Positions 11,210 to 64,000 of a stretch of DNA of 64,000 bases are shown here, piece after piece. The notes beneath the pieces are model-generated. The model searched no databases. It had not been told where the DNA came from and saw only the letters and a program-made list of their open reading frames with translations. Each line of letters opens with the position of its first letter. The stretch's first letter is position 1. This stretch comes from Nitrososphaerota archaeon. GTDB lineage: Archaea; Thermoproteota; Nitrososphaeria_A; Caldarchaeales; Caldarchaeaceae. The position numbers and the translations under genes were made by a program. Location of the stretch: NCBI GenBank assembly GCA_041641305.1, contig JBEPYN010000002.1, positions 32,001 to 96,000 of the forward strand. The letters run 5' to 3'.

Positions 11210-11297
11210 TCTGAGCTGCCGATATCATAAGCCTACTGCGGCATTTAGGTTTGCGACATCTGAGCGCTTAGAAGTCATCTCCTACAAATCTAGCTGT

Positions 11298-12657: not shown

Positions 12658-12663
12658 AGCCTC

Positions 12664-13539: not shown

Positions 13540-13584
13540 GTTTTTATATTTTGATGTGTTATTTCATATCGGTGCATATCGACT

Positions 13585-14100
13585 TTGGTAACCATAACCC
13601 TTGAGGGGAAAACCATGGACCTTGAGCAGGAAAGGTTCGAGCTTCTCGAGAGCATAAACAGAACATCCAGCATATCTTCTGCCTGTCTCCAGCTGGGCAT
13701 CAGCTACAGAACCGCCGTTAACTGGTTGAAGGATATTGAGAGAAAGGCGGGAGGCAAACCCGTCGAATCCATCCGAGGAGGAAAACACAAAGGCATGACA
13801 CGTCTCACGGAGATCGGGCACAAGCTTCTCGAAGCATACTACTCCACCCAATCAATCCACAGACCAGGATTCGTCAAATCATTCATAGAACTCAGGCTCA
13901 GTGCAAGAAACATACTCACGGGACGTGTGAAGCATGTGACCGAAGGAGACGTGATAAGCATGGTGAGCGTCGACTTGGATGACCATCAAGAGGTGAAGTC
14001 CGTTATAACCACCGACAGCCTAAAACGTCTTAAAATCGCTCCCGGCGACCCGGTCCTCATCATCCTGAAAGCCACAGAAACCCTCCTGATGAAGAGATGA
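13585..14100 (+). CDS. modE: ModE-like regulator (HTH + TOBE)
   Basis: SISSA...GISYRTA, RGG...G.T.LT, SARNIL.G.V, SVITTDS...L; divergent from transporter. Confidence 0.85.
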   Translation: MVTITLEGKTMDLEQERFELLESINRTSSISSACLQLGISYRTAVNWLKDIERKAGGKPVESIRGGKHKGMTRLTEIGHKLLEAYYSTQSIHRPGFVKSFIELRLSARNILTGRVKHVTEGDVISMVSVDLDDHQEVKSVITTDSLKRLKIAPGDPVLIILKATETLLMKR

Positions 14101-14280
14101 AAAACAGCAGAGCGGCTCTGCAGCTGTTTTCCCCGTAAAAACCTACACAGCTGCTGCTTCGTTGAACATTATTCGTGCCCACCTTTTCTTCCAATTCATG
14201 AGTGTCTCCCAGCTAGTGCCTCTACATTCTTTTTTCATAATTAGTGAATGCTTATATTATGCATATAAGTGTTTTAGACG

Positions 14281-14538
14281 GTGGTTTGGATGGAGCTGGC
14301 TAAACCCGTGTTGACCGTTGACGTGAAGGGCGCGATGTGCCCGTGGCCTGTGCTCAAGACCCGTGAGGCAATTCAGCGGATAAACGTGGGCGAGGTTATC
14401 GAGGTCCTCGCAACAGACCCTGCGTCGAAGCCCGACCTCGAGGCATGGGCACGCAAAACAGGAAACCGCATCCTATCAGTTGAGGAAAACGGCTCAGACC
14501 CCGTCGTCTACAGATTTTTGATTGAGAAGGTGAAGTAG
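14281..14538 (+). CDS. tusA: TusA family sulfurtransferase
   Basis: D.KG.MCPWP, ATDP.S..D. Confidence 0.9.
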   Translation: MVWMELAKPVLTVDVKGAMCPWPVLKTREAIQRINVGEVIEVLATDPASKPDLEAWARKTGNRILSVEENGSDPVVYRFLIEKVK

Positions 14539-14961
14539 ATGAGTGAGGAGAAGACACGGCTGGTTATTGTGGCGAGCCGTGGAACAGCCGACGGCCTATA
14601 TCCCGCGCTGATTCTCGCGACAACCGCTGTTGCTCAGGGGAGAGAGGCCGCAGTCTACTTCACGTTCGGCGGCATGAAGCTCTTAACCAAGCAAATGGCT
14701 GAAACCATCAAGCCATCGATAGACCTCGGCGTCAGCAAAGAGCAGCTTGAGCAGCTTCTCGCAAAAGGCGGGATGCCGAGCCTACTCGACATGCTGAAAA
14801 TGGCCAAGCAAAGCGGTGTAAAGGTTTATGCATGCTCGCCAACCATGAACCTCTTCGGACTGAAGAAAGAGGACTTGGTTGATGTAGTCGACGACATCAT
14901 AGGCGCGTCAACCTTCCTCGAAATAGCGTCGGACCCGAAGACACTTGCTCTCTTCATCTAG
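14539..14961 (+). CDS. DsrE/DsrF/DrsH-like (DsrE2) protein
   Basis: YFTFGG, VYACSPTM, IIGASTFL. Confidence 0.85.
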   Translation: MSEEKTRLVIVASRGTADGLYPALILATTAVAQGREAAVYFTFGGMKLLTKQMAETIKPSIDLGVSKEQLEQLLAKGGMPSLLDMLKMAKQSGVKVYACSPTMNLFGLKKEDLVDVVDDIIGASTFLEIASDPKTLALFI

Positions 14962-15396
14962 CTACTCCAACACCGTGAACTCGGCCACGAGCACACGTTT
15001 CTCTCCGCCGACATCCACTTCTTTCACAAGCCTGTAGTCGCCGGGCTCGATGTCCACGGGCAGCTCAACCTGTTTGCTTAACGATTTCCCAGACTCCAGA
15101 TTATAGTAGATCGCTATCCATACGCGGTCTTTCATCCACTCGACCGACACCCATTCACCGTCTTGTTTTTTCTGGATATCATAGGGTTCGCCGAAGCCGA
15201 TGGTCTCCGGTGTGTTGTTGACGACGGTGTATGTTAGGGTTCGCTGGCCCTTGTAGAGCTCCGTTTTATCCAAGATGAGAAGAACTTCTTTAACCGGGGG
15301 CGCGGGGCCAAAGGGCTGTGGTGCCATGCTCAACGCCAGTATCACCAGAGCCGCCGACGCAAAAGCTGCGGCCGACAGAATCAACGCCGTCTTCAT
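14962..15396 (-). CDS. Secreted/anchored Ig-like domain protein
   Basis: Signal anchor; 'FGEPY.IQK..DGEW' and 'PGDYRLVKEV...AEF.V'. Confidence 0.65.
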   Translation of the reverse strand: MKTALILSAAAFASAALVILALSMAPQPFGPAPPVKEVLLILDKTELYKGQRTLTYTVVNNTPETIGFGEPYDIQKKQDGEWVSVEWMKDRVWIAIYYNLESGKSLSKQVELPVDIEPGDYRLVKEVDVGGEKRVLVAEFTVLE

Positions 15397-15471
15397 GGCT
15401 CTTATCTGTTTCTAGATGCTTTATTTCTATTGTTTAGAACAGTGTTTCGGAGGTTTTTTCTGACCTGTTCT

Positions 15472-48780: not shown

Positions 48781-49771
48781 CAATACCACAAGAGAATATC
48801 CAAGACGAGCATCAGCGAAGCAATAATGGAGGCCATAAAGGTATAAATACCCACAAAAATCGGATTAAGAGCGAATAATAAATATTTATCCCTCACGGGA
48901 AAAGTTGCTCCAAGAATTCTTTAGAGGCTCTTCCGGAGTCGCCTACTCTGGCATCTCCCGTTAAAAAGGCACCCATCCACAGCCCGGGTCGCATAGTGGC
49001 GTGGCACAAGATTCGAGCCAGCCAACCAGCCCCACCACTTAACAGAAATAACCAACCACGGGGCGACACGTACTATTGCAGGTGGATTGTTTTGTCCCCT
49101 CACCCTCAATCCGTCAGTTTATTAGCCACAGCTACCGGTAAACCCCGTCCATCAAACAGCTTTGCGTAATTATGGTCAACCCCAATTTTCGCCAATAGGC
49201 TAACATGCTGACAAATTATTGTCACCTCACATCCGTGGAAAACCAAAATTTCCGGGAATTAGCCCCGGGTATTACCTGACCGAAATTAGTCAAAATCTGT
49301 AATACGCCCAGTTTCTGCGGCTTAGAGAGGCTGAATTTCGGCTTTTGGAGGCATTCACTAGAGAGTTCTTAGGAATACCTCGACGGTTGACGATTCCTGG
49401 CGGTCTTTGTGTGTTGGGTGTTATTCCGCCAGTTGTTAGCTTTAGACTCCGGCTTCTCCACCCGGGCTAAATGGAAATGAGATGGGGAGAAGGCCCCAAC
49501 ATCTTGACAAATCTCATGAGGCGGCCCAGCAGGCCAGGGGATAGGAGAGTGATATACCACGTCGCTACAGAGCCAAGAGAATGGCGGGGAGGAAAAACAT
49601 ACATAGACATTGAAACAGGTTTGGGATTCGCTCTGCCAGAAGAGTACGTTCCTTGAACGCTTCATGAGCATAGATATTATGATTCGCCGAAAATGCTCTT
49701 GTATGTCCGGTATATGGCCTGCAAAGGTTTTAAGAAACGGCAGGGCTGATTGGTTTGAATAAGATTCGGGA

Positions 49772-52700
49772 ATGAGGTTGGATACTGCTTTCTGGGTGTC
49801 TAAGGCTAAGGAGCTTGGCTACCCTGTGCGGCAGGTGGAGCTCAGCATTGATTATCTCAGGGAGAGCGGAGTTTTCCCAAGGTCCCTTAATGTTGTCCAA
49901 TCTCTGCGTCTGTATCTCGATGATTACATAGAGTTTGTCATAATAAGCGTTGGTGATAAACTGTCTAGGGGGTTCTGCACTAGGGTGGCGCGAGGCTGGA
50001 AGGAAAAACGCCTCATCAGACCTCTCCTCATATTTACGGCTGGTGAAGATGAGAGCTTCATTGTTACCGTACCCGGCGCCGGCAGCGGGGGAGAGGCCAG
50101 GGTTCTGCATATTCAGGATGAACTCTACAGGACCGACATAGAGGTGATTGAGAGCCTCAGGTACACAGGTGACCCCGAGAGCCTTAGAAAAGCATATGAC
50201 AGTGAGATGCTGCCGTATGAAAAGGTTAGGAAAGAGTTCTTTGAAGGCTACAGAAACCTGTATGAGAGGATAGTTAATGCTGTGAAGGATGTTCTGCATG
50301 AAAATGCTGCTTCCTATGCTCAGCGTTTTCTCGGACGGCTGATGTTTCTCTATTTTCTGCAGAGGAAAGGCTGGCTTAAGGGGGATAGGAGTTTTATAAA
50401 CAAGATAAGGGATTACCTTGAGTTAAACCGTCTTTTCTACGAGAGCTTAAACAAGGGAGGCGGTGAGGAGGGTATTCCTTTCTTAAATGGGTCTTTGTTT
50501 GAGCGGGAGGAGTATCTTACGGAGAGGGTTGAGAAGAGGATAGCGGTTGAGATGAATTCGATATTCTATGATGCTAGAAATTTCTTCAACGGGTATAATT
50601 TCACAATCGACGAGGCTTCGCCGCTCGAGGTTGAGGTTAGTGTTGACCCGCTTTTGCTTGGAACCGTTTTAGAGAACATGCTGCCGGAGCATGAGCGTGG
50701 TAAGAAGGGCACCTTCTACACACATGTGAACGCGATAGGTTTCATGTGTAGGAGGGCGTTAGCGGCTTGGCTTGGGTTGGAGGAGACTGTGCAGCAGAGA
50801 GATGGTGAGCTGAGGTTTGTCGACGGTTTGGAGCTGTGTGTGGAGGAGTTGAAGAGGCGTAGGGATGAGAGGGAGATAAGAGAGTTTAGGGAGAGGCTGC
50901 TTTCTCTCAAAGTTCTCGACCCGGCGGTCGGCTCGGGCGGCTTCCTTGTTGTGATGATGCAGACGATTCTTCAGCTCATACAGGGGGTGGAGGAGGCGGT
51001 TGGCTGGAAGTCTGACATAGAGCAGTACAAACGCCGAATAATACCCAACCTCTACGGCTTCGACATAGAGCCGGAGGCGGTGGAGATTGCGCGGCTGAGA
51101 ATTTGGTTATCCCTGATCGTGGACCAGAAGAAGCCGGAGCCTCTTCCAAACCTAGACCTTAACATAGTTACTGTGCAGGATTCGTTGGAGCTTCCCAAAG
51201 GTGTTCAACGGGTTCTCGGCGAGTTCGCGGCTGAGATTGGGTATCTAAGCATAGTGGAGGACCTTGAAGCAGTTAAGGCTAGGTATCTTAACGAGCATGA
51301 CCCAGTAAAGAAGAACGCGCTGAGGAAGAGGATTGAGGAGCTTCAGAAAGAGTTTGTTAAACGCACCGGACTGACTGTTCGGGCGGGGCCTCCTGTCGAG
51401 TTCTTCATGCCAAGCCTAGCAGACATCATAGTGATGAACCCTCCATACGTTAGGCAGGAAGATATCTCCAAGCAGAAAAAAGAATATTATGTAAGCAGCT
51501 ACAGGCTGTACAAGACCTCTGACATCTATGCGTACTTCATGGTGAGAGCCCTGAGGCTTCTTAGGACTGGGGGTGCTGCTGCTTTGATTACATCTGATAA
51601 GTGGCTTGAGGTTAATTACGGCAGGGTGCTCCAACAGCTGCTGAAACCCCACATCGTCGCTATCTATGGCCAGAGAAGGAGGAGCTTCAAAGCCGACGTA
51701 AACACGGTGATAACAGTCCTTAAGAAGGATGAGCAACCAGCTGACAAGCCTATCCAGTTCATCTACTTAGAGTCTTACAGTGATGAGAAGGTTAGGAACT
51801 ACAATGCTATAGAGAGGGGAAGCTCCAGCCGGGGAAGTGGTATTATCTAAGAGTGCCTCGGATATTCGAGGACGTGCTGCTCCCAAGGCTGACGCATAAG
51901 CTCAGGGATTTCGCCGAAATAAAATTCGGAATTAAGACCGGTGCTAATGAGTTCTTCTATATGAAAGACATAAGCCACCTATACGAGGCAGACTACCTAG
52001 CTAACCCAAAGAAGTTCGAGGACTGGGGAGTAAAAGCGCGAAACCAAAAAGAGCTCGAAGAACAAGAACTGATATACATAGAAAACGAAGCAGGAGAAAG
52101 ATTCGTAATAGACAGAAAAGATGTGAAACCAGTCATAAGAAGCCCAAGAGAAATAAGGAGCTATATAATCACAGATGTGCAAACCCTATGCCTATACACA
52201 ACTAACCCCGGAAAATACACGAGAAAATACATAAGATGGGGAGAACAACAAGGTTACCATCAAAGACCAACCTGCAGGGCAAGAAATCCATGGTGGAAAC
52301 TACCAGAATTCAAACCAGCACATGTTCTACTACCAATGTCGTGGATGGATACAATCTACATACCTTATAGCGAAAAACCTGTGATATGTGATGCAAGACT
52401 TTATGCTTTGTACAGCAAAGATTCGTTAAACCTTTGGAAGTATCTCAATTCGACGTTGTTTTTATTGACTGTCGAGCTATTTTGTAGGAGACTTGGCGGA
52501 GGAGCAACAGATATAAAGGTGGAGGATTATGATGATATTCCTGTACCTAACCTTAGCAAATTAGAGATTGAGTTTTCAGCCGAAATCTTAGCTTCCAACA
52601 TTCCACTTCGATACACTGATGAAGTTAAACGTAAAGAAAGACGCGAACTCGATAAGGCCGTGCTCAGAGCCTTAGGCTTCCCCGAATCCGAGCTAGATAG

Positions 52701-52821
52701 GCTTGTCGATGAGCTTCACAAGGCTTTTGTATGGGTCGTTGAGGATCGCCTCATAAAGGCCGGCAGGCCTTTAACAAAAGATGAAGAGGAGGAGGTAATA
52801 GAGGTTGGCGAGGATAATTGA
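49772..52821 (+). CDS. N6-adenine DNA methyltransferase (Eco57I/DrmMI-like) with TRD, split by a -1 frameshift at 51816-51819
   Basis: RLMFLYFLQRKGWL, FLNGSLF, K.G.FYT, LDPAVGSG.F, NPPY; C-terminal part (KWYYLR.P, GIKTGANEFFY) in the -1 frame (ORF 51853-52821). Confidence 0.85.
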
Positions 52822-55800
52822 CAACGTTAGGAAGAGGTTGGCAGAAGTCCTCAACGAGGAGCTCAGGACCCTAGATGAGGTGGCCATAGCCTCGGCTTAC
52901 TTCAACGTAATGGGCTATGGCACCATAGCCGATGCGCTTGGCGACAAGCCGCTGAGACTACTCCTAGGCCGCGAGCCAACCGAGACCATCAAGTGGGAGG
53001 ACGAAATACTCAGAGAAATCGAGGAATACGAGGACGACGCCGAATACTTCAGACTCCTCCTCCGGTGCATAGAGTATTTCAGAGACGAGAAGCGCCAAGT
53101 AAGAACCATCGAGGGCAGGTTCTTCCACGGCAAGGCCTTCATAGCCGCCACCCCAAGCCTAAACGAGGTAAAACACGGCATCGGGATAGTCGGGAGCAGC
53201 AACTTCACCTACGGTGGCCTCGTCTCGAACAGGGAACTAAACATGCTCAACACGGACAGAGAAGTAGTCCAAGAGCTAAGCGAGTGGTTCAACGACCAGT
53301 GGCTCGCCTCGACAGACTTCAAGGACAAATTCCTCTCAATGCTGAGCAACTACGTAACCACCTGGAGCCCATACGAAGTAGTAGCCAAAGCCCTCTACGA
53401 GACCTATAAAGGACACATCATCGAGAGGGAAGAAAGACTACTCAAGAACCTATACCCGCACCAGCAGCTAACCTACATAGACGCGAAGGAGAAACTCGAT
53501 AAATATGGCGGCGTAGTGATAGCGGACTCTACGGGCCTAGGTAAATCGAGGGTAGCGTTAGCCCTAGCCCACGAGGCGATAAGAGAGGGAATACGCCCCC
53601 TCCTCATAGCGCCAAAATCGATACTGGAAACAACATGGAAGCGCGAAATGAACGAAACCCTCATAAGAATTGACACACTTTCCACAGAAATGCTTTCACA
53701 AAACCCCGACATAATAGATGACTATGCCGGAGAAAACGGCCCACATCTAATCATAGTCGACGAGGCCCACTACTTCAGAAGAAGCTCAACTAATAGATAC
53801 ATAGCGCTAAGAGAACTGGTGACAAGGAACCAGGCGGATATAGTGCTGATAACCGCGACCCCTGTCAACACGAGCCTCATGGACCTCTACTCCCTCCTAA
53901 GTTTATACCTACCAGACAACTGCCTAGCAGACCTAGGCCATGCATCGCTATATGCATACTTCGTGACCCAGCAGAAAAGCTGGCTAGCTGGAGAGCCAAT
54001 AAACATGGACGACATACTCCGCAGATTCATAGTGAGACACTCTAGAGAGCTAGCAAAAGCCCTGGATAGAGAAGGTAGGATAAAATTCCCCAAAAGAGCC
54101 TTCGACGAAAAGATAGTGAGATACTCCATAACCATAAGCCTTGATGAAATCTACAAAAAACTAGAAAATCTGAGTCTAGCATTCTACGACCTCTCGGTCG
54201 AGAGGCTATCGGCACAATTCAGGCTACCCGACGGGACAAGAATCGAAAAGAAAGAACCAACACAGATAGAGAACCTGAAAACACTAGTGAAAACCATATT
54301 CATAATAAACCTCTTTAAGAGACTCGAGAGCAGCTACGCGGCATTTGGAGAGACGTTGAGAAGGATGTTAAGCTATATAAGAGCAGCGAAGCATTACGCT
54401 AAGCAGCACTCAGTATTCATACCGCCCAAAATGAGAGGAGACATACTTAACCTGTTCCCGGATGTGGAAGAGATTGAGGATGAGATACCGTTGGAGGCGC
54501 TGCCGGCTCCCGAGCAGCTCTTCTCAAAACCAAAATACAAAGACCTATACGATGGATGCAGGTTAAGCAGAAAGGAAGCCGAGGAATTCGTAGCCAGTTG
54601 CTCCAAAGACGAAGAAGCCATAGAATCGCTTCTGCGCATGATACCCGACCACGATGAGAAATACTTCCTACTAGAGGAGAGGCTCCAACAGATTATGAAG
54701 CAAATAAAGGAGCCGAACGGTGTAATAGTCTTCACACAATACGCAGACACAGCGTATTATCTCTACAGGAGGCTTAAAGCCTCCTTCAGCCGGGTGATGC
54801 TAGTGACCGGGGCAGGCGGCTATGATGACAAGGGCGAAAAAGCCTTAGAGGACCAGATTGTAAAACGATTCCAGGACGTGGGCGGGTTACTCATAAGCAC
54901 AGACGTTCTAAGCGCTGGACAGAACCTACAAAACGCCCAATACGTAGCCAACTACGACTTCCCATGGAACCCGGTCGTACTAATCCAGCGGGTAGGCCGG
55001 ATAGATAGAATAGGCTCAAACTACGACACAGTTTATCTAATCAACGTCTTGCCCAAGAACGGAGACCCTGATGACCCAGAAAGCCTAGAACACTTTCTAG
55101 GGCTAATGCAGAGACTATACCAGCGCCTAGAGATGATAAGAGAAACAGTTGGATTGGATGCGTCGACTCTGGGTGAGGAGGCTGCGCCGAGAGACTTCTC
55201 GATACAGGTCATGATAGCGAGAAACGACGCAAGAGTGCTAGAGATACTTGAACAGAAGATAGAACAGTTCACTAAAGACCCAATAGACATTCTAGCAAGA
55301 ATACTCAACGAGAAGGGTTTACAGTGGGTCGAGAGAATCCCCAATGGCATAGGGGCGATAAAGAGGAGCTCCTTCAACGGAATTTTCGCGCTTTTAACCG
55401 ATGGGAGCGATTTTTATTGGCGCCTCCACATCCTAGACAAGGATAAAGAGAGGGTAATCATCTCCCCAACCGAAATAGTAGACCTTCTGCTAGAGGGCGA
55501 GAGCGATAACAGAGGGGAGAAGCTTGAGTATGATAAGCTAATACCTCTCTTGGTCATGGTTAAGGTATCACTCAAGAATGAGCTCGAAGAAATCATGAGG
55601 AGAGAAACCACGGCAATGGGACCCGTAAGAGTAGATAAAAGAATACGCATTATATTCGATGCGCTCAGCCAGTTCGGCGACGAAGGTGAGAGGCTAGCCG
55701 CCATGTTCCGCAGAGTAGCTTCAAGACCGGCGATAGTTAACCATCTCTACAGAGCATATCTGGAGGGGAAGCTTCTAGAAGAGGCGAGAGAAATACTGCC

Positions 55801-55885
55801 CAAAGCGGTGCAGGAGATAGAAACAGCCAACCCTGAGACAAAGGAGCTAAGACGCGTCTGCTGGTGCTACTTCACAAAAATCTGA
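52805..55885 (+). CDS. PLD-nuclease + SNF2-family helicase (DrmD-like)
   Basis: H.K, GSSNFT.GGL..N.ELN; ADSTGLGKS, DEAH.FR, TATP.N, G.NLQ, PWNP....QR.GRIDR.G. Confidence 0.88.
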   Translation: MARIIDNVRKRLAEVLNEELRTLDEVAIASAYFNVMGYGTIADALGDKPLRLLLGREPTETIKWEDEILREIEEYEDDAEYFRLLLRCIEYFRDEKRQVRTIEGRFFHGKAFIAATPSLNEVKHGIGIVGSSNFTYGGLVSNRELNMLNTDREVVQELSEWFNDQWLASTDFKDKFLSMLSNYVTTWSPYEVVAKALYETYKGHIIEREERLLKNLYPHQQLTYIDAKEKLDKYGGVVIADSTGLGKSRVALALAHEAIREGIRPLLIAPKSILETTWKREMNETLIRIDTLSTEMLSQNPDIIDDYAGENGPHLIIVDEAHYFRRSSTNRYIALRELVTRNQADIVLITATPVNTSLMDLYSLLSLYLPDNCLADLGHASLYAYFVTQQKSWLAGEPINMDDILRRFIVRHSRELAKALDREGRIKFPKRAFDEKIVRYSITISLDEIYKKLENLSLAFYDLSVERLSAQFRLPDGTRIEKKEPTQIENLKTLVKTIFIINLFKRLESSYAAFGETLRRMLSYIRAAKHYAKQHSVFIPPKMRGDILNLFPDVEEIEDEIPLEALPAPEQLFSKPKYKDLYDGCRLSRKEAEEFVASCSKDEEAIESLLRMIPDHDEKYFLLEERLQQIMKQIKEPNGVIVFTQYADTAYYLYRRLKASFSRVMLVTGAGGYDDKGEKALEDQIVKRFQDVGGLLISTDVLSAGQNLQNAQYVANYDFPWNPVVLIQRVGRIDRIGSNYDTVYLINVLPKNGDPDDPESLEHFLGLMQRLYQRLEMIRETVGLDASTLGEEAAPRDFSIQVMIARNDARVLEILEQKIEQFTKDPIDILARILNEKGLQWVERIPNGIGAIKRSSFNGIFALLTDGSDFYWRLHILDKDKERVIISPTEIVDLLLEGESDNRGEKLEYDKLIPLLVMVKVSLKNELEEIMRRETTAMGPVRVDKRIRIIFDALSQFGDEGERLAAMFRRVASRPAIVNHLYRAYLEGKLLEEAREILPKAVQEIETANPETKELRRVCWCYFTKI

Positions 55886-56602
55886 ACACACCTCCCAAAA
55901 CCCTCTCCAAATCCTCCTAGGCTTTTCCGAAGACGGCCAATCATTATGAACACCGGCCTTCGACGGCCAGATAGTGCAACACAGACTCCAACAGTTCCAG
56001 GATTCGCCCCAGGAGGAAAGTCCGTAGTCGGGTCATCAGCTAGAGCCAGACACCCTTCGCCGTGACGCATCTAAGAACAACTACGTTTTTCTCATCCACG
56101 GAAATGTTTTGACCAGAGGCAGGAGCCCGCTGAGGGGCCGAAACTACGTAGAACATCTCCTCACCAATTTCAGCCTCGTCTCCAACCCTGAACCTGTGAA
56201 GCCATTTCTTCAGAAGCTTAAGTGTCGGAGCATGCCTGACGTAGACAACAACCTCATCATACTTCCTAGAATCAGCCGAAAGCTCGTCAGGAGAAGAAAA
56301 GCTAACCTGTATACAGAAGCTTGGAAACAGGCTTGAGAACGCGGATGGCGGCAGAGACGGCTACACCTTGAGAACGCGTTTCTTGCCACTCACACCATTC
56401 AGGTCTCATCTGTTGCATAAAAGCGGTGTAGGCCAGAGCAGCTAAATCGCGCATAACCTTAGTGCAGAGGGTTCTTGAGAAAGCCGATGGAGTTGGATAG
56501 GGTGGAACCATCCAAACGTCCTTCGCCACCACTTTTTGCACAGAACTCAGATATGTAGTCGAAAACTAGGGGTCCGAGAACGGGTCGAATAGTTATGGCG
56601 GC

Positions 56603-57332
56603 TTAGATGAAGGCTTTAGTTGAATTATTCCATATCAGGTCAAAGATGGAGTCAAGATTTCCGACTCCATCTTTCCTAAAAAGTAATCCGACCTCGAAGT
56701 TACTCATTAGGGAGTGTCGTCTGAACTCCCACGACCCAATGTAGGCTAGGTCACTGTCCGCTATGACCATCTTTGCGTGGAGGCCTGCAATGAGAAGACC
56801 CCCGACGCTTTGAGCAAAAACCCTGCATTGGAACTCTCTTCCAAACCTGTTCTCTTGTACGCCTCCCATATCTCGCTAAGCACTGGTTTCAGCGAATGAA
56901 ACCTCTCAGACCGCGTCAAGAAGCGCACCTCTACGCTGCTTGCAGCTAGCCCTCTAAAATGCGGGACCAGCATGGATAGGGTCGGCTGGTCATCTAAATG
57001 CGAGCATATGCGCAGTACATGCCTAGCCTGCTTCACTATTGCGAGGAAGGCGCTGAGCATATCGAAGCATCTTTGGCTTGGGACCTGCCCTAGACCTAAT
57101 CCTGGAATGTTTGCCACAATCTCTACCTCTGGCTGCTCAGCAACTCTGCGAAGCTCCTCGGGCGCGTGCTTTGGAGGTTTTAGGATGAGCTTCCCCCGGA
57201 AAGCTCAGCATCAAGGTATCCCATCTTCACTAGCGCAATAGCGCGAAGCTGAGTGATTCCCCTCTCTTCTTCGGACACGCAGCTGAGCAGGTCTTCAAGC
57301 TGTAGAGAACCTCTAGAAACAACTAGGTTCAC
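56603..57332 (-). pseudogene. drmC: DrmC-like phospholipase D nuclease, disrupted
   Basis: GTG overlapping drmB stop; in-frame TAA at 57180-57182; frameshift near 56841; intact HAKMVIAD...GS......N.E.G motif. Confidence 0.7.
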
Positions 57333-58747
57333 TATGTCTTTATCCCCAATTGCCTGAGCACCAACTTCCTGTCAAGCTTATCGTTCGGCACGAAGTACCC
57401 GCTAGTGGGGTGGCATAGTGGGTCTTTCACGTATAAGCAGCCCACGCAAGCGTTTCTACAGTCATATTTGCACGACATGAGCATCCGCTGGGCCTCTACA
57501 AAGACCTCGGTTAGCTTGTGGTCGAACGCATATGATAAACTCCCCTTATCATCTTCGGAGCATTCGTAGATGAGAATAACATTAAGGTCGTCCAAGACCT
57601 TGCCTATGAACGACCCGGACTCCACCCCGGCGAGAAGGTGAAACGATTTGGTTAAAGCGTGCTCAAGTGTATGAAGGAACGTAAACTTATCTTCGTCGTT
57701 GACAAGAAAACCGCGCACCCTAAGCAGCACGGCTTCCCCCTCAGCAATGGCCACGTATGCCTTGTAGTGTTTCCTAAAGTTCACGTCCCGCTCCTCCCAG
57801 GGTTGTATAACAGCGTCTTTCTTGGCGTAGTATCCATAGCAGACTATGGCGGCTTTGACATTCCCGAGCAAGTAAATGTTGTCCGGGTCTATGCCCAATA
57901 CGCGTATAGACTCGGCATCTTGACTCTTGAGGACGTCGGTACCTCGCCGGATAGCCTTCCGCCTCCCGTCCAAAATGTCTCTAGCCACATCTTCAACATT
58001 TAGGCCTTCTATGCTAACAGCGCTTACGATAGCTGGCTTAAGCGGGTTTACGGCGACAGTTTTGATGGACATCTGTTGCATTTTTTGGTTGTCTGCAACA
58101 CCTGTTCGCCCTCCTGTCTGGCACCCGCAACCCATATGAGGCCTCTCTTGCTCCCCGCATTTTTTGCAGAACCACCTTGACTCGGATATCTTCGCCCGCC
58201 TAACCTCAAGCCCTATCCTCCCAACCCCGCACTTTTTACAAGTGAAGGTCCCATCTGGGTTACTCTTGGCAAACTTGAACGGGGGTCTCAAAGCCTGTAT
58301 CTTGCTACACGATAAGCAAACGTGGACGATGCCAAGCTGGTCGAACTTATCTCCACCACATTCCCTGCACTTTGCGAGAGGCAAGGAACGTCTATCCAGC
58401 AAGTGATAGGCCCTGCAATTCTTATTGAGACACACGAGGCTAAGAGGCCAGAGCTCCAGCAGGCCACTTTCAGGCTGGTAAAGGCGGACCCTTTCCGACA
58501 CCACGCGGCTGGCGTAAGGAATACCTAGCTTTTTTGAGATGCTTGCTAGCGCCTCTTCCTCCGCCTCCGATGGTTGGCGATACTTCAATAAGGCTTGGCT
58601 GATGGCCTTTGCTACCACCGCCCTCAAGTTATCATCATCCACTTGGTTGCCGTATAATTCTGAAACCTTCCAGCAGTAGCCCGAGTACTGTAGAGGGGCT
58701 CCGGGGAACCGACTCTGAATGGCTTGGATTGGGGTCACCTGCACCAC
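57332..58747 (-). CDS. drmB: DrmB-like DUF1998 protein
   Basis: Zn ribbons; LHT.EHAL, ILIYE, C...C..AC..CL, LDR C-terminal motif. Confidence 0.85.
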   Translation of the reverse strand: MVQVTPIQAIQSRFPGAPLQYSGYCWKVSELYGNQVDDDNLRAVVAKAISQALLKYRQPSEAEEEALASISKKLGIPYASRVVSERVRLYQPESGLLELWPLSLVCLNKNCRAYHLLDRRSLPLAKCRECGGDKFDQLGIVHVCLSCSKIQALRPPFKFAKSNPDGTFTCKKCGVGRIGLEVRRAKISESRWFCKKCGEQERPHMGCGCQTGGRTGVADNQKMQQMSIKTVAVNPLKPAIVSAVSIEGLNVEDVARDILDGRRKAIRRGTDVLKSQDAESIRVLGIDPDNIYLLGNVKAAIVCYGYYAKKDAVIQPWEERDVNFRKHYKAYVAIAEGEAVLLRVRGFLVNDEDKFTFLHTLEHALTKSFHLLAGVESGSFIGKVLDDLNVILIYECSEDDKGSLSYAFDHKLTEVFVEAQRMLMSCKYDCRNACVGCLYVKDPLCHPTSGYFVPNDKLDRKLVLRQLGIKT

Positions 58748-58761
58748 TATCTGTTTATGAC

Positions 58762-61566
58762 TCAGCCACCATCACCCCCAATATCCTCATCTTCGCCTAA
58801 CTCAGCGCCCAACCTTAGCATGCGCAGCAACTCCAATCCCGATGTTGGTTGGAGTCGCACCAACCTCCCGCCACCGCGTAGAGATGGCCACCCCTCGCTA
58901 AAAAACACGTCGAAGCCGCCGCTTTGAGCTCGCGCAACCCTATCTCCAACGTCATATAAGAAGTCGCTGATTATCACTCTAATCGATTTCTCTAGTCCGG
59001 CATCCATGCGACACTCTTCTGTCAAGTAGATGCCGCGCAATTCGTCGGTTAGCTCTCCGAGCTTTGCCATGAGGGTTTGATGCAAGGCTCGCCTTGCTTG
59101 TCTCCAGCCTCCTGCTTGGTAACCATAAGTGAGGTACCGCGACCTTGCCAACGCGTTGAAAACGAGCGGCAACGTCGCCTCTATTGCTGCAGTATTGCAA
59201 GGTTCGACCACTTCGGGCTCAAAGGCTGGGTCGGTGAACCAAGTCACGAAGTTTTCGTAGATCCAGCTATCCCTGGGCATCTCGGGAACGAGGTGTAGAA
59301 CCACCAGCGCGGGGGCTTCCTGAGCTATGGCTAGGCGCCCTACTCTGCCTATTACTTGGAAGAATTCGTTGCTGCTTGTGGGGGCCCCCCATATATGTGC
59401 TACGTTAAGCCACGGCAGGTGAACCCCCCACCCGAGAGTCTTGGTGGCGATGAGCAGCCCTAACACGATTTGCTGAGCCAGCCTCTTCATCTCAGCTAGT
59501 GCATCTGGACTCAAGTCGCCGTGGAAAAATAGTAATTCATTCTCCGGCAGGTTGATGTCTATGCCCGGCTCCGATGCGAGCTTAGGGACATACTCTAGGA
59601 GGTTATGCCCGTCGGTTTTACGTTGCACGTAGAGCAGTTGCTTACCATACATGGACTTATACTCACCTCCTTGTTTTTTCACATAGCTGTACAGCGCTAA
59701 GGAGCTCCAGCTAACGCTTCCTAGTGTCGAGACATCCCATGGATATATGGCAACCACCCTCTGCCAGAGGTTGGGGGACTGGGAGAAGTAGCGCCTTCCA
59801 TCCAGAACCTCCACTGCTTCCCTACCTGCCCCAATTAGCTTGCATGCGAACTCCTCAGGATTAGCCGCAGTCGCGCAAGCCAGGTAAAACAGCGTCCCGC
59901 CCTCAAGGCCGTAAAAGCTCCTTAAGGACTTCAATAGCCTAATGAAGTGGGATAGCCTGTTAGCCGGCGCGCCAGAAAATAATGTGAACTCATCTATGAA
60001 CACTAGGCGTATGTCTGACTTTAGCTGTGTTGCGTGGGTTATCGGTTGTTTGCAATTTGGGCACGAGACGGCGCCTCCTGAGGCAGGGGATACGCGACCG
60101 CAACTGCTACACCTCAGGAACCTAGCCCCTATTAGGGCATGGGAGTTCTCATTGCGGGGGAGCTCATAAATTAGCTTGTCAGGGGTTGCAACGATTATGT
60201 CAGGGCAGAAATTCTCGGTGTCCCTGCTATCCAAGAACACATAGTCTAGGACAGCGCCACACTTCTTGCACTTGGGTACGCGAACCCCGGATAGCTCGAC
60301 CGCGTCGAAGGATTCGTTCTCGCCGCAATTTGGGCACTCCGTTATGAGTTGTTGGGGATAGTAGTTGGCAACTTGGTCTTCCGATTTTTCAATATATCCC
60401 TTTCCTATGTAAAGGCCCAGCCTAATCTTGCCCCCTTCCCTGAGCTGGTTAAGGTCGAATAGATACTTAGAAATCGCAGTAACTTGCTGAATGGTCAATA
60501 TGCGGGTTGGGAAGAGGAGTAAGACCTTTACCCCATCGCCAGGCGCTAAGGCCGCGGTTGCTACGGCCATAGCGGCGGCCGTTAGCGTCTTGCCTGCTGC
60601 TGTCGGAACAGCGCTGACAAGCACCTTTGTCGCCCGATTGTCTTCAAACAAGAATTGCACCAGCCTGCGCAGGGAGTCCAGCTGGTGCTTATGCAGGGCT
60701 TTGATATTCTCCCTCCTCTTTATAATCTCGGTGACTTTCTTGAGCTCCTCATACCTGCTATACAGCTCCTCCTCCTCGCTTGTGTCTGCAGGGTGGGGGG
60801 AGAAAGAGTATCTATCAAGCACTATGACCGGCGCAGCGAATACTACGTTTTTTTCTCTGCGGCTAACCCGCGTGAAGCAGTTTAGGTTGTAAAGCTTTGA
60901 CCTTGCATGTGGTGGGTTATCTTGCGTGACGACCTCGTCTATCTCGCCATCGATTATAGCTTGTACGAGCGGCGAATAGAGGGCGTGGCAGGACCTGTAT
61001 TCCACCTCCCGTCTTGCTTTATATATGCTGCTCACATCTGTGGTGTTCATGAGTTTAGCGGTGACTATGTAACCATCATCTTCGGCGATTTCAATCCTGA
61101 CGTGAAGGGCCGCTTTAAGTCGCACCTTTTCGTTAGCCGGTAACTCTGCTTGGTATTCTTTGCTGATTGGCAAATCCTTTACGCTCAATGTGGCCTCTAT
61201 GGCCCCCATCCGCAAAGACGATATTGTGGGGGCCTTCAAGTTCTCGAAAGTGGGGTAAAGGAACAAAGCCTTTACAGTCACTGCTCTAAGCCTACCCCTA
61301 ACTTTGAATTGGGATTGAACAAACCACGGCTTTGCGGATGGTCTCAAGGAGTCGTCGGAAATCAGCTGCTGAGAGACTTCCTTGGGGTAAAGCCTGCCTG
61401 TCAGGGCGGCGTCCCTCTGTGGGTTGAGCTGGTTGAATAGGGCGGAGGTAACGGACTCCAATGATAGCTTGCCAATCGGTTTGTCGAACATAGGGTCCTC
61501 CAAAGACATTTCAAGTATTTCCCGAGCCAAATCAGCAACATATTCAGAGCCAGGTATGCGGGACAT
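58762..61566 (-). CDS. drmA: DrmA-like SF2 helicase
   Basis: PTAAGKT, R.LT.QQ, CP.CG Zn ribbons, ATPDK, DEF.L, ATAAN, Q..GRVGR, PRD..YE.F; start set at ATG 61566. Confidence 0.85.
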   Translation of the reverse strand: MSRIPGSEYVADLAREILEMSLEDPMFDKPIGKLSLESVTSALFNQLNPQRDAALTGRLYPKEVSQQLISDDSLRPSAKPWFVQSQFKVRGRLRAVTVKALFLYPTFENLKAPTISSLRMGAIEATLSVKDLPISKEYQAELPANEKVRLKAALHVRIEIAEDDGYIVTAKLMNTTDVSSIYKARREVEYRSCHALYSPLVQAIIDGEIDEVVTQDNPPHARSKLYNLNCFTRVSRREKNVVFAAPVIVLDRYSFSPHPADTSEEEELYSRYEELKKVTEIIKRRENIKALHKHQLDSLRRLVQFLFEDNRATKVLVSAVPTAAGKTLTAAAMAVATAALAPGDGVKVLLLFPTRILTIQQVTAISKYLFDLNQLREGGKIRLGLYIGKGYIEKSEDQVANYYPQQLITECPNCGENESFDAVELSGVRVPKCKKCGAVLDYVFLDSRDTENFCPDIIVATPDKLIYELPRNENSHALIGARFLRCSSCGRVSPASGGAVSCPNCKQPITHATQLKSDIRLVFIDEFTLFSGAPANRLSHFIRLLKSLRSFYGLEGGTLFYLACATAANPEEFACKLIGAGREAVEVLDGRRYFSQSPNLWQRVVAIYPWDVSTLGSVSWSSLALYSYVKKQGGEYKSMYGKQLLYVQRKTDGHNLLEYVPKLASEPGIDINLPENELLFFHGDLSPDALAEMKRLAQQIVLGLLIATKTLGWGVHLPWLNVAHIWGAPTSSNEFFQVIGRVGRLAIAQEAPALVVLHLVPEMPRDSWIYENFVTWFTDPAFEPEVVEPCNTAAIEATLPLVFNALARSRYLTYGYQAGGWRQARRALHQTLMAKLGELTDELRGIYLTEECRMDAGLEKSIRVIISDFLYDVGDRVARAQSGGFDVFFSEGWPSLRGGGRLVRLQPTSGLELLRMLRLGAELGEDEDIGGDGG

Positions 61567-61661
61567 TTCTGAACTGAGGTAGCTCTTCGACGAAGATAAG
61601 CGTTCCGACGAGTCGGAAGGCTGTTTTCCAACGCTCCGAAGCCTTAGCAAAGCGCTTATAT

Positions 61662-62516
61662 GTGCAATGTATATCTCTATTAGCAACCCAGGGGCCGCTC
61701 TTGGTAGATGCAAACCCATGCATCCTATTGCTGGATGAGCGCGTGGTCTACGACTATAGGGTATCAAGTTTGATTAGTTTCTTGCAGGATAGTACTGCCT
61801 TCGGCCGTGAAGTCTTTTGCCTTTATCTCAATAGCAGGCCCGTCGACTTGCTAGGTAGCCAGCCACCATCCCTAGGCGGCAGAATCAAGGTTTTGAAAAG
61901 AATGATTGTTAATCCTGTTGAACCGGCGGAGAATCGAAGCTCGCTTAAGGAGGCCTTGCTCAGCTTTTTTGCGGCGGTAGGGATTAGGAGCGGGGTTAGA
62001 CTCGGCGTCTGGATATGCGCTATGTCGCCAAACCTTTACCAGTACCCATTGGAGGCCTTCTATTGGGCCCTCTACCTCGTCGGTTATGAGATAGCGTTTG
62101 TTAGGAGGCTGCTATTATCGGAGGATGAAGCATATGAGGTCCCCCACACGCTAAGCTTCTCCGCACGCTTCGCAAATGAAAAGGTGCGGGAGCTTCTGCT
62201 GATGGCTCTAGCTTATCTAAGCGTTTTCAGTAGTGGTAGAATCCACTCAATAGCTAAAAAGATAGAAGAAGTAATTCCGGGCAGGTACGGTGACTCTGAT
62301 ACGATACGCAAGGCTTTGAAGCCGACTCTTGAGGACGCCTATATGTACTCTCTGGTAGAAAAGCTCAAGCCCCGCATCAAATCTATTGAGTTCAGTTTAA
62401 CGCGATTCGGGAGGATAGTTACAGACGCAATTCTGGACAGGGACATACTCGACCACTTACCCAACGATGACGTACGTGGCTTCGTGAACCTGATTGCTGA
62501 GGAGGCTCGCGGATGA
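61662..62516 (+). CDS. Hypothetical protein (defence island)
   Basis: 284-aa ORF divergent from drmA, ATGA-coupled to next gene; possible C-terminal wHTH (SLT.FG). Confidence 0.65.
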   Translation: MQCISLLATQGPLLVDANPCILLLDERVVYDYRVSSLISFLQDSTAFGREVFCLYLNSRPVDLLGSQPPSLGGRIKVLKRMIVNPVEPAENRSSLKEALLSFFAAVGIRSGVRLGVWICAMSPNLYQYPLEAFYWALYLVGYEIAFVRRLLLSEDEAYEVPHTLSFSARFANEKVRELLLMALAYLSVFSSGRIHSIAKKIEEVIPGRYGDSDTIRKALKPTLEDAYMYSLVEKLKPRIKSIEFSLTRFGRIVTDAILDRDILDHLPNDDVRGFVNLIAEEARG

Positions 62517-63844
62517 GAGGGTTGGTAAAAATTTGCATCGAAAACTGCATACCAAGGGAGAGGGGGTGGTTTGTTGAGGTTAGGTGGGGGGAGATAGCCT
62601 ACCTCGGCCCGAAGAGTGATGAGGAATACATGGTAGCTGTTGAGGCATGCGGTGAAGTTGGTGGGACAGAAACGCGCGACTCGTTTGTCCTCGACGACCC
62701 GGTGATGAGAAATTCTTTCATAACCCTGCTCAGGACAAAGAAAATCAAGGTTCACTCCTTGGAAGATCATGCCATCTCTCTAGAGCGATACATTGAGGCG
62801 GCATACGAGTCGATAAAGCAGCAGCTCCCGCGGCTGCATTCCGAGTACCCGCGGGGGCCGCTCGAGGTGCTTGACACGCAGACAAGGAGGTGGAAAATAC
62901 TTGAGGACGCCTGCGATGCGCGGTATAAACCGTTCTCAGTTCTCCGTGGAGGAGGCGCTTTTTATGTCTCCTATGGCGGCGCTTTTAAGAAGGTTGGCAA
63001 GCGCGAGGCGTACATAGTAGCGCTTAGGGAATACACCATGAAAAGCGTGAGGCTAGCCCTATCAGATGGGGGGTACTTTGGGGTGAACCTGTCTGAGCTG
63101 GGGCAATTGCCAGATGAGGTGTTCAACGCCCTCGTTAGGTTCCAGCAAAAACTTATCAAGGGCGCCGCCATCCTGCTATACCGCACCCCCGCCCTATCGG
63201 CGGTATGCAGGGTGCTCGCCATAGCCAGGGTGACCCCTATCCTCACAGAGGGGGTCGTCAGGTTGCGCCGTATGCATGGGTACAAGGAGGTTCCGATAAT
63301 GGGCACCAAGCTTTGGGCAAACCTAAGCATCATATCCAGGATATTTGAGGGCTTGGGGTATGGGGTTGAGTCGGGGGATAGATGCATTACGGTTGAGCGG
63401 GATGGCTACAGGCTGGCCATCTATGTTTCCAACGAGAAGCGGTTTATCGCCGGCGAGCTGGAGGACGGCTCCAAAGCCGTCTTTTTACCTGCTCCGTACC
63501 TGGAAAGCTTCTTAGGCCTATTGGAAGCGTTGAAGAATATGCGCACGTGGGGCTTCGCTCTGATAACTGGTGATGCGTGGCCCCGCGTTATGCAGTTATT
63601 ATGCATTCTATGCAACAGCGTTGGGCCGGGAGATGAAAAAGCTGTCGCTGAGGCATTAGTGCTTGCAAGGAAGGATGAGGGCGTTATGGACGCTATCAGG
63701 AGCAACATCAACATTAAAACCACAGCGTTGAATGCTTTAGAGTCGGCATTGGTTGGAAAAAGCAATACCGTCCTAGATAAGCTATCACAGGAAGAGCTGC
63801 GCAAGCTTTGGAGGCTGGTCAGAGCGGGCCCTAGCCCCCAATAA
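62513..63844 (+). CDS. Hypothetical protein (defence island)
   Basis: 443-aa ORF, coupled overlap with upstream gene; no motif recognised. Confidence 0.7.
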   Translation: MRGLVKICIENCIPRERGWFVEVRWGEIAYLGPKSDEEYMVAVEACGEVGGTETRDSFVLDDPVMRNSFITLLRTKKIKVHSLEDHAISLERYIEAAYESIKQQLPRLHSEYPRGPLEVLDTQTRRWKILEDACDARYKPFSVLRGGGAFYVSYGGAFKKVGKREAYIVALREYTMKSVRLALSDGGYFGVNLSELGQLPDEVFNALVRFQQKLIKGAAILLYRTPALSAVCRVLAIARVTPILTEGVVRLRRMHGYKEVPIMGTKLWANLSIISRIFEGLGYGVESGDRCITVERDGYRLAIYVSNEKRFIAGELEDGSKAVFLPAPYLESFLGLLEALKNMRTWGFALITGDAWPRVMQLLCILCNSVGPGDEKAVAEALVLARKDEGVMDAIRSNINIKTTALNALESALVGKSNTVLDKLSQEELRKLWRLVRAGPSPQ

Positions 63845-64000
63845 TGTTGAAATATTTGCAGATTTTCCTGGCAGGGCACTTTGAGCATTCGGGGTGATGG
63901 TGCTTACATACCAAGGAGCCGAAATCTAGAAGGGCGTAGTTGAGCGCGCGAGGGTTCATGCCCCTAGTCCTTAGCGCCTCCTTTAATCCAGCCAGCTCGT

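Follow-up and report, generated by a model that had tools for sequence, protein, structure and literature searches.

The question raised by this locus is whether an adenine methylase, a nuclease-bearing helicase and a set of DISARM genes, lying next to each other, form one defence system or two. In the window, that is, the whole 64,000-nucleotide stretch of DNA analysed here, all open reading frames of the initial annotation were recovered. The arrangement it described was also found, with family profile matches in agreement: an N6 methylase and a PLD-SNF2 helicase on the plus strand, drmA-drmB-drmC-like genes on the minus strand and a divergent coupled gene pair. As shown below, the data argue for two adjacent anti-virus modules that are independent of each other, and a single rearranged DISARM is not the likely reading. 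Module A is most probably a mobile cassette of two genes, a methylase and a helicase-nuclease, and Module B a rare variant of class 2-type DISARM. Both very likely sit within a variable island of a hot-spring archaeon, ~1.66-Mb and Caldarchaeum-like.

The methylase and helicase-nuclease cassette

The first gene of Module A encodes an N6-adenine methylase in two pieces. The N-terminal piece (49772-51850, plus strand, 692 aa) contains a catalytic gamma-class domain of the Eco57I/type IIG-like kind, with Pfam matches to Eco57I (1.6e-28), MmeI_Mtase (3.7e-13) and N6_Mtase. Among PADLOC profiles, REase_MTase_IIG (6e-48) and PglX (3e-21) scored better than DrmMI, which reached just 1e-15. The C-terminal piece (51853-52821, plus strand, 322 aa) begins with a GTG located 3 nt past the upstream stop and corresponds to the target-recognition, Eco57I_C-like part (Pfam M_Eco57I_C, 1.4e-5; PADLOC MTase_II, 1.3e-15). 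It shares 65-80% identity with the C-terminal third of relatives having a single ORF. The methylase is a single gene of ~1016 aa in relatives, uninterrupted in L022-L025 as one ORF of ~1015-1030 aa. In the window, one nucleotide is missing between 51819 and 51820, after a GGGG run (site 51815-51825, plus strand), and the gene is thereby split into 692 + 322 aa. The cassette is therefore either impaired or working from two polypeptides.

The second gene (52805-55885, plus strand), which begins before the methylase gene has ended, is intact and encodes an HKD(PLD)-SNF2 helicase-nuclease of 1026 aa. Pfam places an N-terminal PLDc_2 domain at residues 86-166, followed by SNF2-rel_dom and Helicase_C, and the HxK...GSxN motif of the PLD domain is intact in the sequence. 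The best PADLOC model was C3a139 'HKD+Snf2' (2.4e-46), ahead of DrmD (7e-33). More than 1400 homologues were found, many of them full-length at ~50% identity. In G358, the gene after a helicase of this family combines a Type ISP coupler, an N6 MTase and a Type_ISP_C domain (2e-76). For both modules, mechanisms are taken from homologues. In Module A, the Eco57I/type IIG-like methylase, with its own target-recognition part, would mark host DNA, and the HKD(PLD)-SNF2 ATPase most likely moves along unmarked DNA and cuts it, like a split type ISP enzyme.

A class 2-like DISARM block and its partner genes

Module B extends from 56039 to ~65836 and crosses the window end. It is a seven-gene DISARM block in the order drmC pseudogene, drmB, drmA, then the divergent U284 and U443, then the convergent glycosylase and C5 methylase. 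This set recurs in eight metagenome loci (L006, L009-L012, L014, L016 and L017). The DrmA helicase (58762-61491, minus strand) has 909 aa as called elsewhere, its start lying possibly as far upstream as 61566. It matches PADLOC DrmA at 1.3e-73, the next non-DISARM matches being HamB (2e-6) and DpdF (4e-4). A 909-aa protein, P0001, is identical to it; other homologues show 43-89% identity. DrmB (57332-58747, minus strand, 471 aa), which adjoins DrmA in all related loci, matches PADLOC DrmB at 1.2e-40 and has a C-terminal Cys cluster of the DUF1998 type; the Pfam DUF1998 model gave no match in it at E<=0.01.

The stand-alone PLD nuclease gene drmC, already seen as disrupted in the initial annotation, is a pseudogene spread over three frames (56603-57371, minus strand). 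DNA alignment with L006 located two 1-nt deletions, at 57196/57195 and 56836/56835. The L006 orthologue is a single 249-aa ORF (PADLOC DrmC, 9e-17; NCBIfam DISARM_DrmC_I, 9e-10), and the window fragment bearing the HxK motif matches PADLOC DrmC at 8e-11. Downstream of drmC lies a small conserved ORF (56040-56387, minus strand; tblastn 82% to a 97-aa ORF of L006) with an early in-frame stop relative to L006. Copies of it are found near both cassette copies (L022 11234-11587, L024 2038-2391), and profile searches gave no family match for it.

On the other side of the block, a Mig-type HhH-GPD glycosylase is encoded on the minus strand at window-equivalent positions 63831-64496 (L021 1831-2496), its 3' end (63831-64000) being inside the window. 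It aligns over its full length with PDB 1KEA (Mig.MthI; 3e-22), including the FeS Cys motif and the catalytic Asp; its PADLOC match is 'Type II nicking endonuclease' (7e-24). After it, beyond the window, comes a C5 cytosine methylase (64501-65547, window-equivalent; L021 2501-3547) that matches MTase_II (2e-70) and DrmMII (2e-55) in PADLOC, and PF00145 at about 4e-57 on orthologues. Both genes are conserved with the DISARM block. Judged from sequence, the block's own methylase is thus a C5 enzyme of the DrmMII type, paired with a Mig-like glycosylase.

DISARM is the branch of YprA systems in which helicase and DUF1998 are in separate genes (PMC12458937), and its class 2 consists of drmABC and drmMII, sometimes with drmE, drmC being dispensable (bioRxiv 10.1101/2021.12.28.474362; PMC9142583). 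Module B is class 2-like DISARM, not class 1. What is shown here is gene content and linkage; by analogy with bacterial DISARM, the C5 methylase would mark self DNA and the DrmA-DrmB helicase complex would load onto unmethylated invading DNA. DrmC, a pseudogene in the window, would be an optional PLD nuclease. The glycosylase would remove T from T:G mismatches, which would arise by heat-driven deamination of the 5-methylcytosines made by Module B itself.

U284 (61662-62516, or 61701-62516, plus strand) and U443 (62513-63844, plus strand) overlap by ATGA. Neither protein matched any Pfam, PADLOC or NCBIfam model, including those of DrmE. In its AF2 model (pLDDT 79), U284 looks like a CARF-like Rossmann domain followed by a C-terminal winged helix, the CARF likeness being one of fold and not of sequence profile. 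The winged helix compares with PadR/MarR/RosR (Z ~10). The N-terminal domain finds Csm6/Csa3/Csx1 in Foldseek (E 8e-4, prob 0.97) and compares with the Can2 CARF domain (Z 8.6 over 120 aa); an atlas lead pointed to HFX_2341_N/Card1-CARF+WHD (score 0.8). The family is rare, with 6 clusters found. From its linkage and predicted fold, U284 is most likely either a regulator of the divergent operons or a tether that holds the complex on DNA. The intergenic region between drmA and U284 contains a palindrome with 11-nt arms (61599-61622), found by repeat search and largely kept in L006, and past it TATA-like TTATAT/TATATC boxes (~61655-61676). This palindrome is a candidate operator and may have a regulatory role.

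U443 is a four-domain protein in the position of DrmE and is the conserved partner of this DrmA clade. Its family is small, with 21 matches among 1.84 billion representatives. The AF2 model (pLDDT 89) gave a best PDB Z of 6.3, and structure comparison revealed no clear or recognised fold relative; an REase-like domain at 266-350 has no invariant acidic residues. Linkage and predicted fold suggest that U443 takes the place of DrmE: it would be an obligatory subunit, probably without catalysis of its own, that binds DNA or a partner. It is hardly credible that U284 and U443 form a separate module, a regulator and an uncharacterised protein, merely located beside DISARM. They are encoded on the strand opposite to drmABC, and distant U443-like paralogues (~25% identity) occur in non-DISARM contexts of 4 genomes, without DrmA. 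However, a U443 homologue adjoins drmA in 11 of the 12 loci with enough flank, at DrmA identities of 28-89% and in three gene orders. In L056, a more distant locus, U443 lies in one operon with a 322-aa protein and the C5 methylase, divergent from drmABC; in L057, also more distant, it is directly upstream of drmA and drmB and co-directional with them. The conserved DISARM block extends past 63844, the end of U443, and past the window end.

Probable independence of the two modules, and gene damage

Module A (49657-56038, 6.4 kb) is an insertion as compared to L006 and is common to G018, of the same genus. In blastn, positions 15448-15629 of L006, a metagenome contig, correspond to window 49466-47 and positions 5710-15431 to window 56039-65836. 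L006 thus has 16 nt in place of Module A and carries the whole DISARM block, at 89% nucleotide identity over 9.8 kb. In G018 (locus L022), alignment with the window is continuous over 49596-56438, which puts Module A at the same position in the chromosome; the DISARM interval 56439-65888 gives way there to 2.7 kb of other sequence, and no DISARM gene is present. Since each module is found without the other at the same site in close relatives, the two are most probably independent. Twelve loci at unrelated sites, among them a second copy in the window's genome, also carry the methylase-helicase pair, and the pair itself is the only neighbourhood kept across them. Among 399 other sampled genomes of the phylum, DrmA occurs in 3 and the HKD-SNF2 helicase in 14, with no overlap either way. 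Nor did any of the 15 metagenome loci with a DrmA of this clade contain the pair. Within the samples searched, the pair and drmABC were never found together in another genome, an outcome that the initial annotation had named as refuting its reading.

These results bear on the main interpretation of the initial annotation, a single class 1-like DISARM in which the N6 methylase is DrmMI and the PLD-SNF2 protein a nuclease-bearing DrmD acting with DrmAB, drmC being thereby dispensable. The modules are adjacent and convergent, both proteins do match the DrmD and DrmMI models, Serratia class 1 DISARM has drmMI and drmMII together (bioRxiv 10.1101/2021.12.28.474362), and drmC is intact in the cassette-less L006 and broken in the cassette-bearing window, though this is one comparison. 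Against it, non-DISARM models outscore DrmMI and DrmD for the methylase and helicase, the pair is not kept with this DrmA clade, and drmC is dispensable anyway in characterised systems (PMC9142583). A single class 1-like system is thus very improbable. The alternative offered at the outset, a drmABC core with two novel subunits beside an independent methylase/PLD-helicase module, is supported and is extended here by the block's own C5 methylase and glycosylase.

The locus contains three 1-nt deletions, two in drmC and one in the N6 methylase. In a control set of orthologues (>= 250 aa) compared to G018, just 1 of 193 was multi-frame, which argues that the frameshifts are real. With both genes broken, either module may be partly inactive. 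One could go further and consider the island as decaying, both modules being non-functional relics. The deletions affect 2 of ~10 genes versus 1 of 193 genome-wide, the small ORF carries a stop, a 425-aa gene is truncated to a remnant at 49420-49653, and the methylase is broken in L023 and L027 as well. However, DrmA, DrmB, U284, U443, the glycosylase, the C5 methylase and the HKD-SNF2 protein are full-length and 86-93% identical to relatives, and drmC is the single component known as dispensable. General decay is therefore possible but unlikely.

A further reading keeps independent origins and adds present cross-talk, DrmAB recruiting a PLD nuclease to do the work of the lost DrmC, either that of the adjacent helicase or a different one. 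Adjacency leaves room for such interplay, the PLD motif of the helicase is intact, and, according to a proposal of Bravo et al. (PMC9142583), other PLD nucleases may be recruited by DrmAB. However, the comparative data give no signal in its favour, the methylase partner of the helicase is frameshifted too, and the window's genome is the sole case. We consider cross-talk improbable and retain two independent modules.

Comparison with known systems

Module A resembles Type ISP and Type-2 'BREX-related' (BR/Hma-like) systems in combining an N6 methylase having a target-recognition domain with a nuclease-bearing SF2/SNF2 ATPase. In BR type 2, the effector is an HKD-Snf2 protein with the HKD nuclease at the helicase N-terminus (PMC12839542). 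The domains of the methylase gene in G358 relatives strengthen the likeness to type ISP, which differs in being one polypeptide instead of two separate genes. No DUF499 ATPase or DUF3780 gene was found among the conserved neighbours of the cassette, which is therefore not a BR system as defined.

The glycosylase and C5 methylase of Module B recall M.MthTI and Mig.MthI, another C5 methylase gene paired with a repair enzyme for the T:G products of 5mC deamination; the window glycosylase has the same length and FeS motif as Mig.MthI. M.MthTI and Mig.MthI belong to a type II R-M context on the Methanothermobacter plasmid pFV1, whereas the pair found here forms part of a DISARM-type helicase system. 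By analogy only, it can also be likened to E. coli dcm-vsr, which repairs T:G mismatches from 5mC deamination.

With class 1 DISARM (drmD-drmMI-drmABC, Serratia sp. SCBI) the locus shares an SNF2 protein and an N6 methylase beside drmABC, and a drmMII-type methylase. It differs in that the SNF2 protein has an N-terminal HKD nuclease and in that the SNF2/methylase pair is independently mobile. The class 2 DISARM of Bacillus paralicheniformis is a single operon, drmE-drmA-drmB-drmC-drmMII (Ofir et al. 2018, as summarised in bioRxiv 10.1101/2021.12.28.474362, PMC9142583). Module B, by contrast, has three transcription units and a thermophilic archaeal host. Its drmC is a pseudogene, its methylase is coupled with a Mig-type T:G glycosylase, and in place of a recognisable DrmE it has a CARF-like/wHTH protein and a second protein, of 443 aa, whose family is rare. 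Module B and class 2 DISARM have in common the DrmA helicase, a separate DrmB, a PLD-type and expendable DrmC, and a C5 methylase linked to the core.

Gene content and modularity of the island

Every gene listed in the initial annotation was recovered by an ORF map of the window combined with profile searches. On the + strand, an Eco57I/MmeI-type N6 methylase gene (49772-51850) precedes a gene encoding a 1026-residue protein (52805-55885) with an N-terminal PLDc_2 domain followed by SNF2 and Helicase_C domains. On the - strand lie drmA (58762-61491), drmB (57332-58747) and a drmC remnant spread across three frames (56603-57371). Two genes run divergently from drmA on the + strand and share an ATGA overlap; their products, U284 (61662-62516) and U443 (62513-63844), had no Pfam, PADLOC or NCBIfam match. 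A Mig-type glycosylase gene (63831-64496) then runs past the end of the window, beyond which a C5 cytosine methylase gene is found (64501-65547, in window numbering). The host genome, G000, in which the window occupies C2:32001-96000, is archaeal, 1.66 Mb in size and 99% complete, and close homologues carry the name Candidatus Caldarchaeum subterraneum. Its 16S rRNA gene is probably interrupted by at least one intron, since the match (G000:C2:678829-681974) covers 3146 nt where the model has 1478 positions.

These genes had been proposed to form a single class-I-like DISARM system including the PLD-SNF2 protein. Comparison with related loci did not bear this out. A 6.4 kb segment comprising the N6 methylase and the helicase (49657-56038, hereafter module A or the cassette) corresponds to 16 nt in the metagenome contig L006, with which the following DISARM block (56039-65836, module B) is collinear at 89% identity. 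Conversely, the complete genome of G018, from the same genus, aligns continuously with 49596-56438 and then again from 65889, showing that the cassette occupies the same site there and that the whole DISARM interval is missing. Neither the N6 methylase nor the PLD-SNF2 helicase was found in any of the 15 related DrmA loci obtained from a metagenome scan, whereas in class 1 DISARM a DrmD SNF2 protein and a DrmMI N6 methylase are conserved with drmABC. A scan of genome contigs with the DrmA alignment returned nothing. Of 400 sampled genomes, 14 other than G000 have the helicase, all of them DrmA-negative. The data therefore favour, and extend, the alternative also raised initially, namely a drmABC core with two novel subunits beside an independent methylase/PLD-helicase module. 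Across three related genomes, the island has either one of the modules alone or the two together, a clean natural experiment for modularity. The comparison corrects a tempting reading in which neighbouring defence genes were joined into one 'system'.

Further variation was observed at the island borders. A short repeat at 49209-49345 has two copies in L006 (19236-19352 and 20607-20743) and also occurs at G000:C2:365876-365955 and at G000:C1:519194-519273, the latter about 5 kb upstream of a second copy of the cassette. This could be a MITE-like element or a repeat of the island border. At 49420-49653 (+), a gene of 425 residues, unbroken in L006 (15439-16716), is reduced to its final 78 codons, which points to further rearrangement at the left edge. 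On the other side, a 294-residue ORF without family match adjoins the C5 methylase gene (65892-66776 in window numbering; 3892-4776 of L021, the continuation of the window). It is partly common to G018 and is replaced by 30 nt in L006, making this another position at which the island varies. No convincing direct repeats were seen at the cassette junctions, and no tRNA gene was found within 40000-64000.

The N6 methylase/HKD-SNF2 cassette and the damaged genes

The helicase and the methylase had been taken for DrmD and DrmMI, respectively. Other PADLOC models describe them better. For the helicase, the C3a139 'HKD+Snf2' model (2.4e-46) outranked DrmD (7e-33); for the methylase, type IIG (6e-48) came ahead of PglX, itself ahead of DrmMI. 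The architecture is that of an HKD-Snf2 helicase with a PglX-like N6 methylase (secondary matches HmaA, 7e-22, and PglX, 3e-21). The helicase family is large, with more than 1400 matches; many of these, from a variety of archaea, cover the full length at about 50% identity. In 12 fetched loci, its sole conserved neighbour is the methylase, encoded immediately upstream with overlapping stop and start codons. This two-gene cassette is widespread in archaea. G000 itself has the second copy (G000:C1:524163-530265; 4967-11069 of the fetched locus L024), 53-65% identical and with an intact methylase; beside it, at L024 3151-4761, lies a gene of the GmrSD_N (type IV restriction) family.

In two loci of the sampled genome G358 (L030 and L031, contig C1), the HKD-SNF2 helicase gene is followed by a 1024-residue gene with a Type ISP coupler, an N6 methylase domain and Type_ISP_C. 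Judging from these domains, the G358 pair would in effect be a type ISP enzyme split in two genes, with an HKD instead of an Mrr nuclease. It speaks for the cassette possibly acting in the manner of a split type ISP enzyme. The coupler and Type_ISP_C domains were seen only in the G358 relatives, and the window methylase has neither. By analogy, the cassette resembles a minimal, split restriction system of the type ISP kind and is worth testing.

Two genes of the island, one in each module, are interrupted. In relatives, the N6 methylase is a single ORF of about 1016 residues; in the window, a one-base deletion that follows GGGG, between positions 51819 and 51820, leaves pieces of 692 and 322 residues. 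In drmC, single bases are missing at 57196/57195 and at 56836/56835 as compared to the unbroken 249-residue gene of L006. We considered assembly error or general sequencing noise as the source of these three deletions. As a control of assembly quality, orthologues of at least 250 residues were compared between G000 and G018, and only one of 193 required a multi-frame alignment; noise is therefore very unlikely, and this explanation was rejected. The population may be heterogeneous at these sites. The cassette methylase is also interrupted, at different positions, in L023 (genome G296, 5147-8014) and L027 (genome G286, 3993-7984), and its recurrent inactivation may merit a look.

The DISARM block and its additional proteins

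DrmA, a YprA-type SF2 helicase, matched the PADLOC DrmA model at 1.3e-73 across residues 354-914, the best non-DISARM model reaching 2e-6. DrmB (PADLOC DrmB, 1.2e-40) is encoded by its own gene, 14 nt downstream of drmA; no Pfam DUF1998 match was reported for it at E ≤ 0.01. DISARM has been defined as the YprA branch in which the DUF1998 gene is separate and directly follows drmA (Bell et al., PMC12458937), and the window drmA and drmB fit this definition. The drmC gene matches DrmC models (8e-11) yet carries its two 1-nt deletions; it is unbroken in L006 (9e-17) and in other loci. DrmC, a PLD-domain nuclease, is reported to be dispensable in both DISARM classes and frequently absent (PMC9142583; bioRxiv 10.1101/2021.12.28.474362). 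Checked against Dpd, Druantia and housekeeping helicases, all three proteins scored far better to DISARM models, in agreement with the initial assignment. DrmA homologues are rare: 11 clusters in a large protein collection, three of 399 other genomes of the phylum and none of 10 genomes of the genus.

As judged from tblastn and ORF clustering, U443 and a gene in the U284 position, divergent from drmA-drmB-drmC, are present in every locus with enough flanking sequence. Past U443, two more genes are conserved, encoding the C5 cytosine methylase (PF00145, about 4e-57) and a glycosylase of the HhH-GPD type (PF00730). In 8 close loci, as well as in the more distant L056, the C5 methylase is part of the conserved block. 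The enzyme matches the class 2 methylase model DrmMII (PADLOC, 2e-55) but scores higher to the generic MTase_II (2e-70) and DruM (1e-66) models. By published definitions, module B is a class-2-type DISARM variant. Its drmA and drmB are separate genes, accompanied by drmC and by the gene of a C5 methylase, and there are three additions beyond the class 2 core: the glycosylase, U284 and U443. DrmE is present 'on occasion' in class 2 DISARM (bioRxiv 10.1101/2021.12.28.474362; PMC9142583). Six divergent proteins from the U443 and U284 positions gave no PADLOC or NCBIfam match to DrmE at E ≤ 0.1; remote homology to DrmE may exist. In the distant archaeal DISARM-like locus L057 (G214:C1), a phosphoribosyltransferase-like gene (6687-7436; PADLOC PsyrT 1e-13, ShosT 8e-12), not a PLD DrmC, follows drmB, and a Cas4-like PD-(D/E)xK gene lies upstream.

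The best PDB match of the glycosylase is Mig.MthI (1KEA), aligned end to end at 3e-22 (residues 17-217 versus 11-217), with the catalytic aspartate and all four cysteines of the iron-sulfur loop in register. The protein shows the features of the Mig family: an HhH-GPD fold, the catalytic aspartate, a C-x6-C-x2-C-x5-C loop, a length of about 220 residues and no MutY C-terminal domain. It also matches the PADLOC 'Type II nicking endonuclease' model. Mig is active on T:G mismatches (PMC9945173). Since the glycosylase is constantly paired with the C5 methylase, we infer that it would repair T:G mismatches arising from 5mC deamination. Such a pairing suggests how m5C self-marking stays affordable at high temperature. 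The papers searched contained no joint mention of DISARM, DrmA and a glycosylase.

The U443 family is rare, with 21 matches among 1.84 billion representatives. It accompanies DrmA over a range of 28-89% DrmA identity and in three gene orders: divergent from drmA, as in the window; joined to the C5 methylase gene in a single operon (L056); and directly upstream of and co-directional with drmA, in the DrmE position (L057). Its structure was predicted with confidence (pLDDT 89), and no convincing structural relative was found, the best Z being 6.3. Residues 266-350 form a restriction-endonuclease-like domain without invariant acidic residues. Paralogues at about 25% identity occur in unrelated contexts, outside DISARM, in four sampled genomes (L059-L062, from G174, G075, G370 and G328). 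One set adjoins a Vps4/CdvC-like MIT-AAA ATPase and two thymidylate kinases, another a DEAD/ResIII helicase, a dCMP deaminase and a family B DNA polymerase. The latter helicase, together with weak structure matches to Bax1/VRR-NUC/Hjc and XPB-DRD domains (Z 4.6-5.7), led us to consider U443 as a relative of Bax1, the nuclease partner of XPB. No sequence relation to any PDB chain, no Pfam match and no conserved acidic residues were found, and the relationship was retained only as a lead. 'Cas8-like' neighbours in the ESM Atlas were discarded, their recognition score being below threshold and their families inconsistent.

In the U284 model (pLDDT 79), a C-terminal winged helix is clear (Z about 10). 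The structures nearest to the N-terminal Rossmann-like domain are the CARF proteins Csm6, Csa3, Csx1 and Can2 (Foldseek E 8e-4; VIA Z 8.6 to Can2; Atlas lead 0.8), without profile match; none of the 12 U284 homologues had a relevant Pfam match. A Cas10/Csm1 gene (G000:C1:448432-450696; TIGR02578, 5e-127) shows a type III CRISPR system to be present in the host, which is of interest here solely as context for this domain.

Comparison with known systems

The cassette shares its HKD-Snf2 and N6-methylase parts with type-2 BREX-related systems, which also require DUF499 ATPase and DUF3780 genes (PMC12839542). These are absent here, the insertion having two genes only and the 12 loci no third conserved neighbour. 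The paper describing those systems was all that a literature search returned for a named two-gene HKD-Snf2 and N6-methylase system. In type ISP-like restriction-modification enzymes, a nuclease, an SF2 motor, a coupler, a methylase and a TRD act as one unit; in the cassette, the domains are distributed over two genes.

In ARMADA-type systems, YprA and DUF1998 parts are fused and paired with BrxHII/PglX-like genes, unlike the conserved module B. CARF-wHTH regulators (Csa3 or HFX_2341-like) combine an N-terminal CARF Rossmann-like domain with a C-terminal winged helix, an arrangement that U284 may share, the likeness of its N-terminal domain to CARF coming from the predicted structure. A rather improbable reading would be that thermophilic archaea have a distinct DISARM sub-type with DrmE replaced by a sensor/regulator made of two proteins, U443 and U284. 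In U443, domains including a degenerate nuclease-like one would then form a new combination of folds, and U284, CARF-like with a winged helix, could link DISARM expression or activity to cyclic-oligonucleotide signalling of the host type III CRISPR system, the Mig glycosylase paying the mutational cost of m5C at high temperature. No part of DISARM is less well understood than its accessory subunits, and work on DrmD and DrmE has been called for (PMC9142583); the comparison defines a class-2-like sub-type, rare and archaeal, in which two uncharacterised proteins take the DrmE slot. Overall, both modules are of known kinds and well delimited, the rare DISARM sub-type bearing U284, U443 and Mig being the more interesting.
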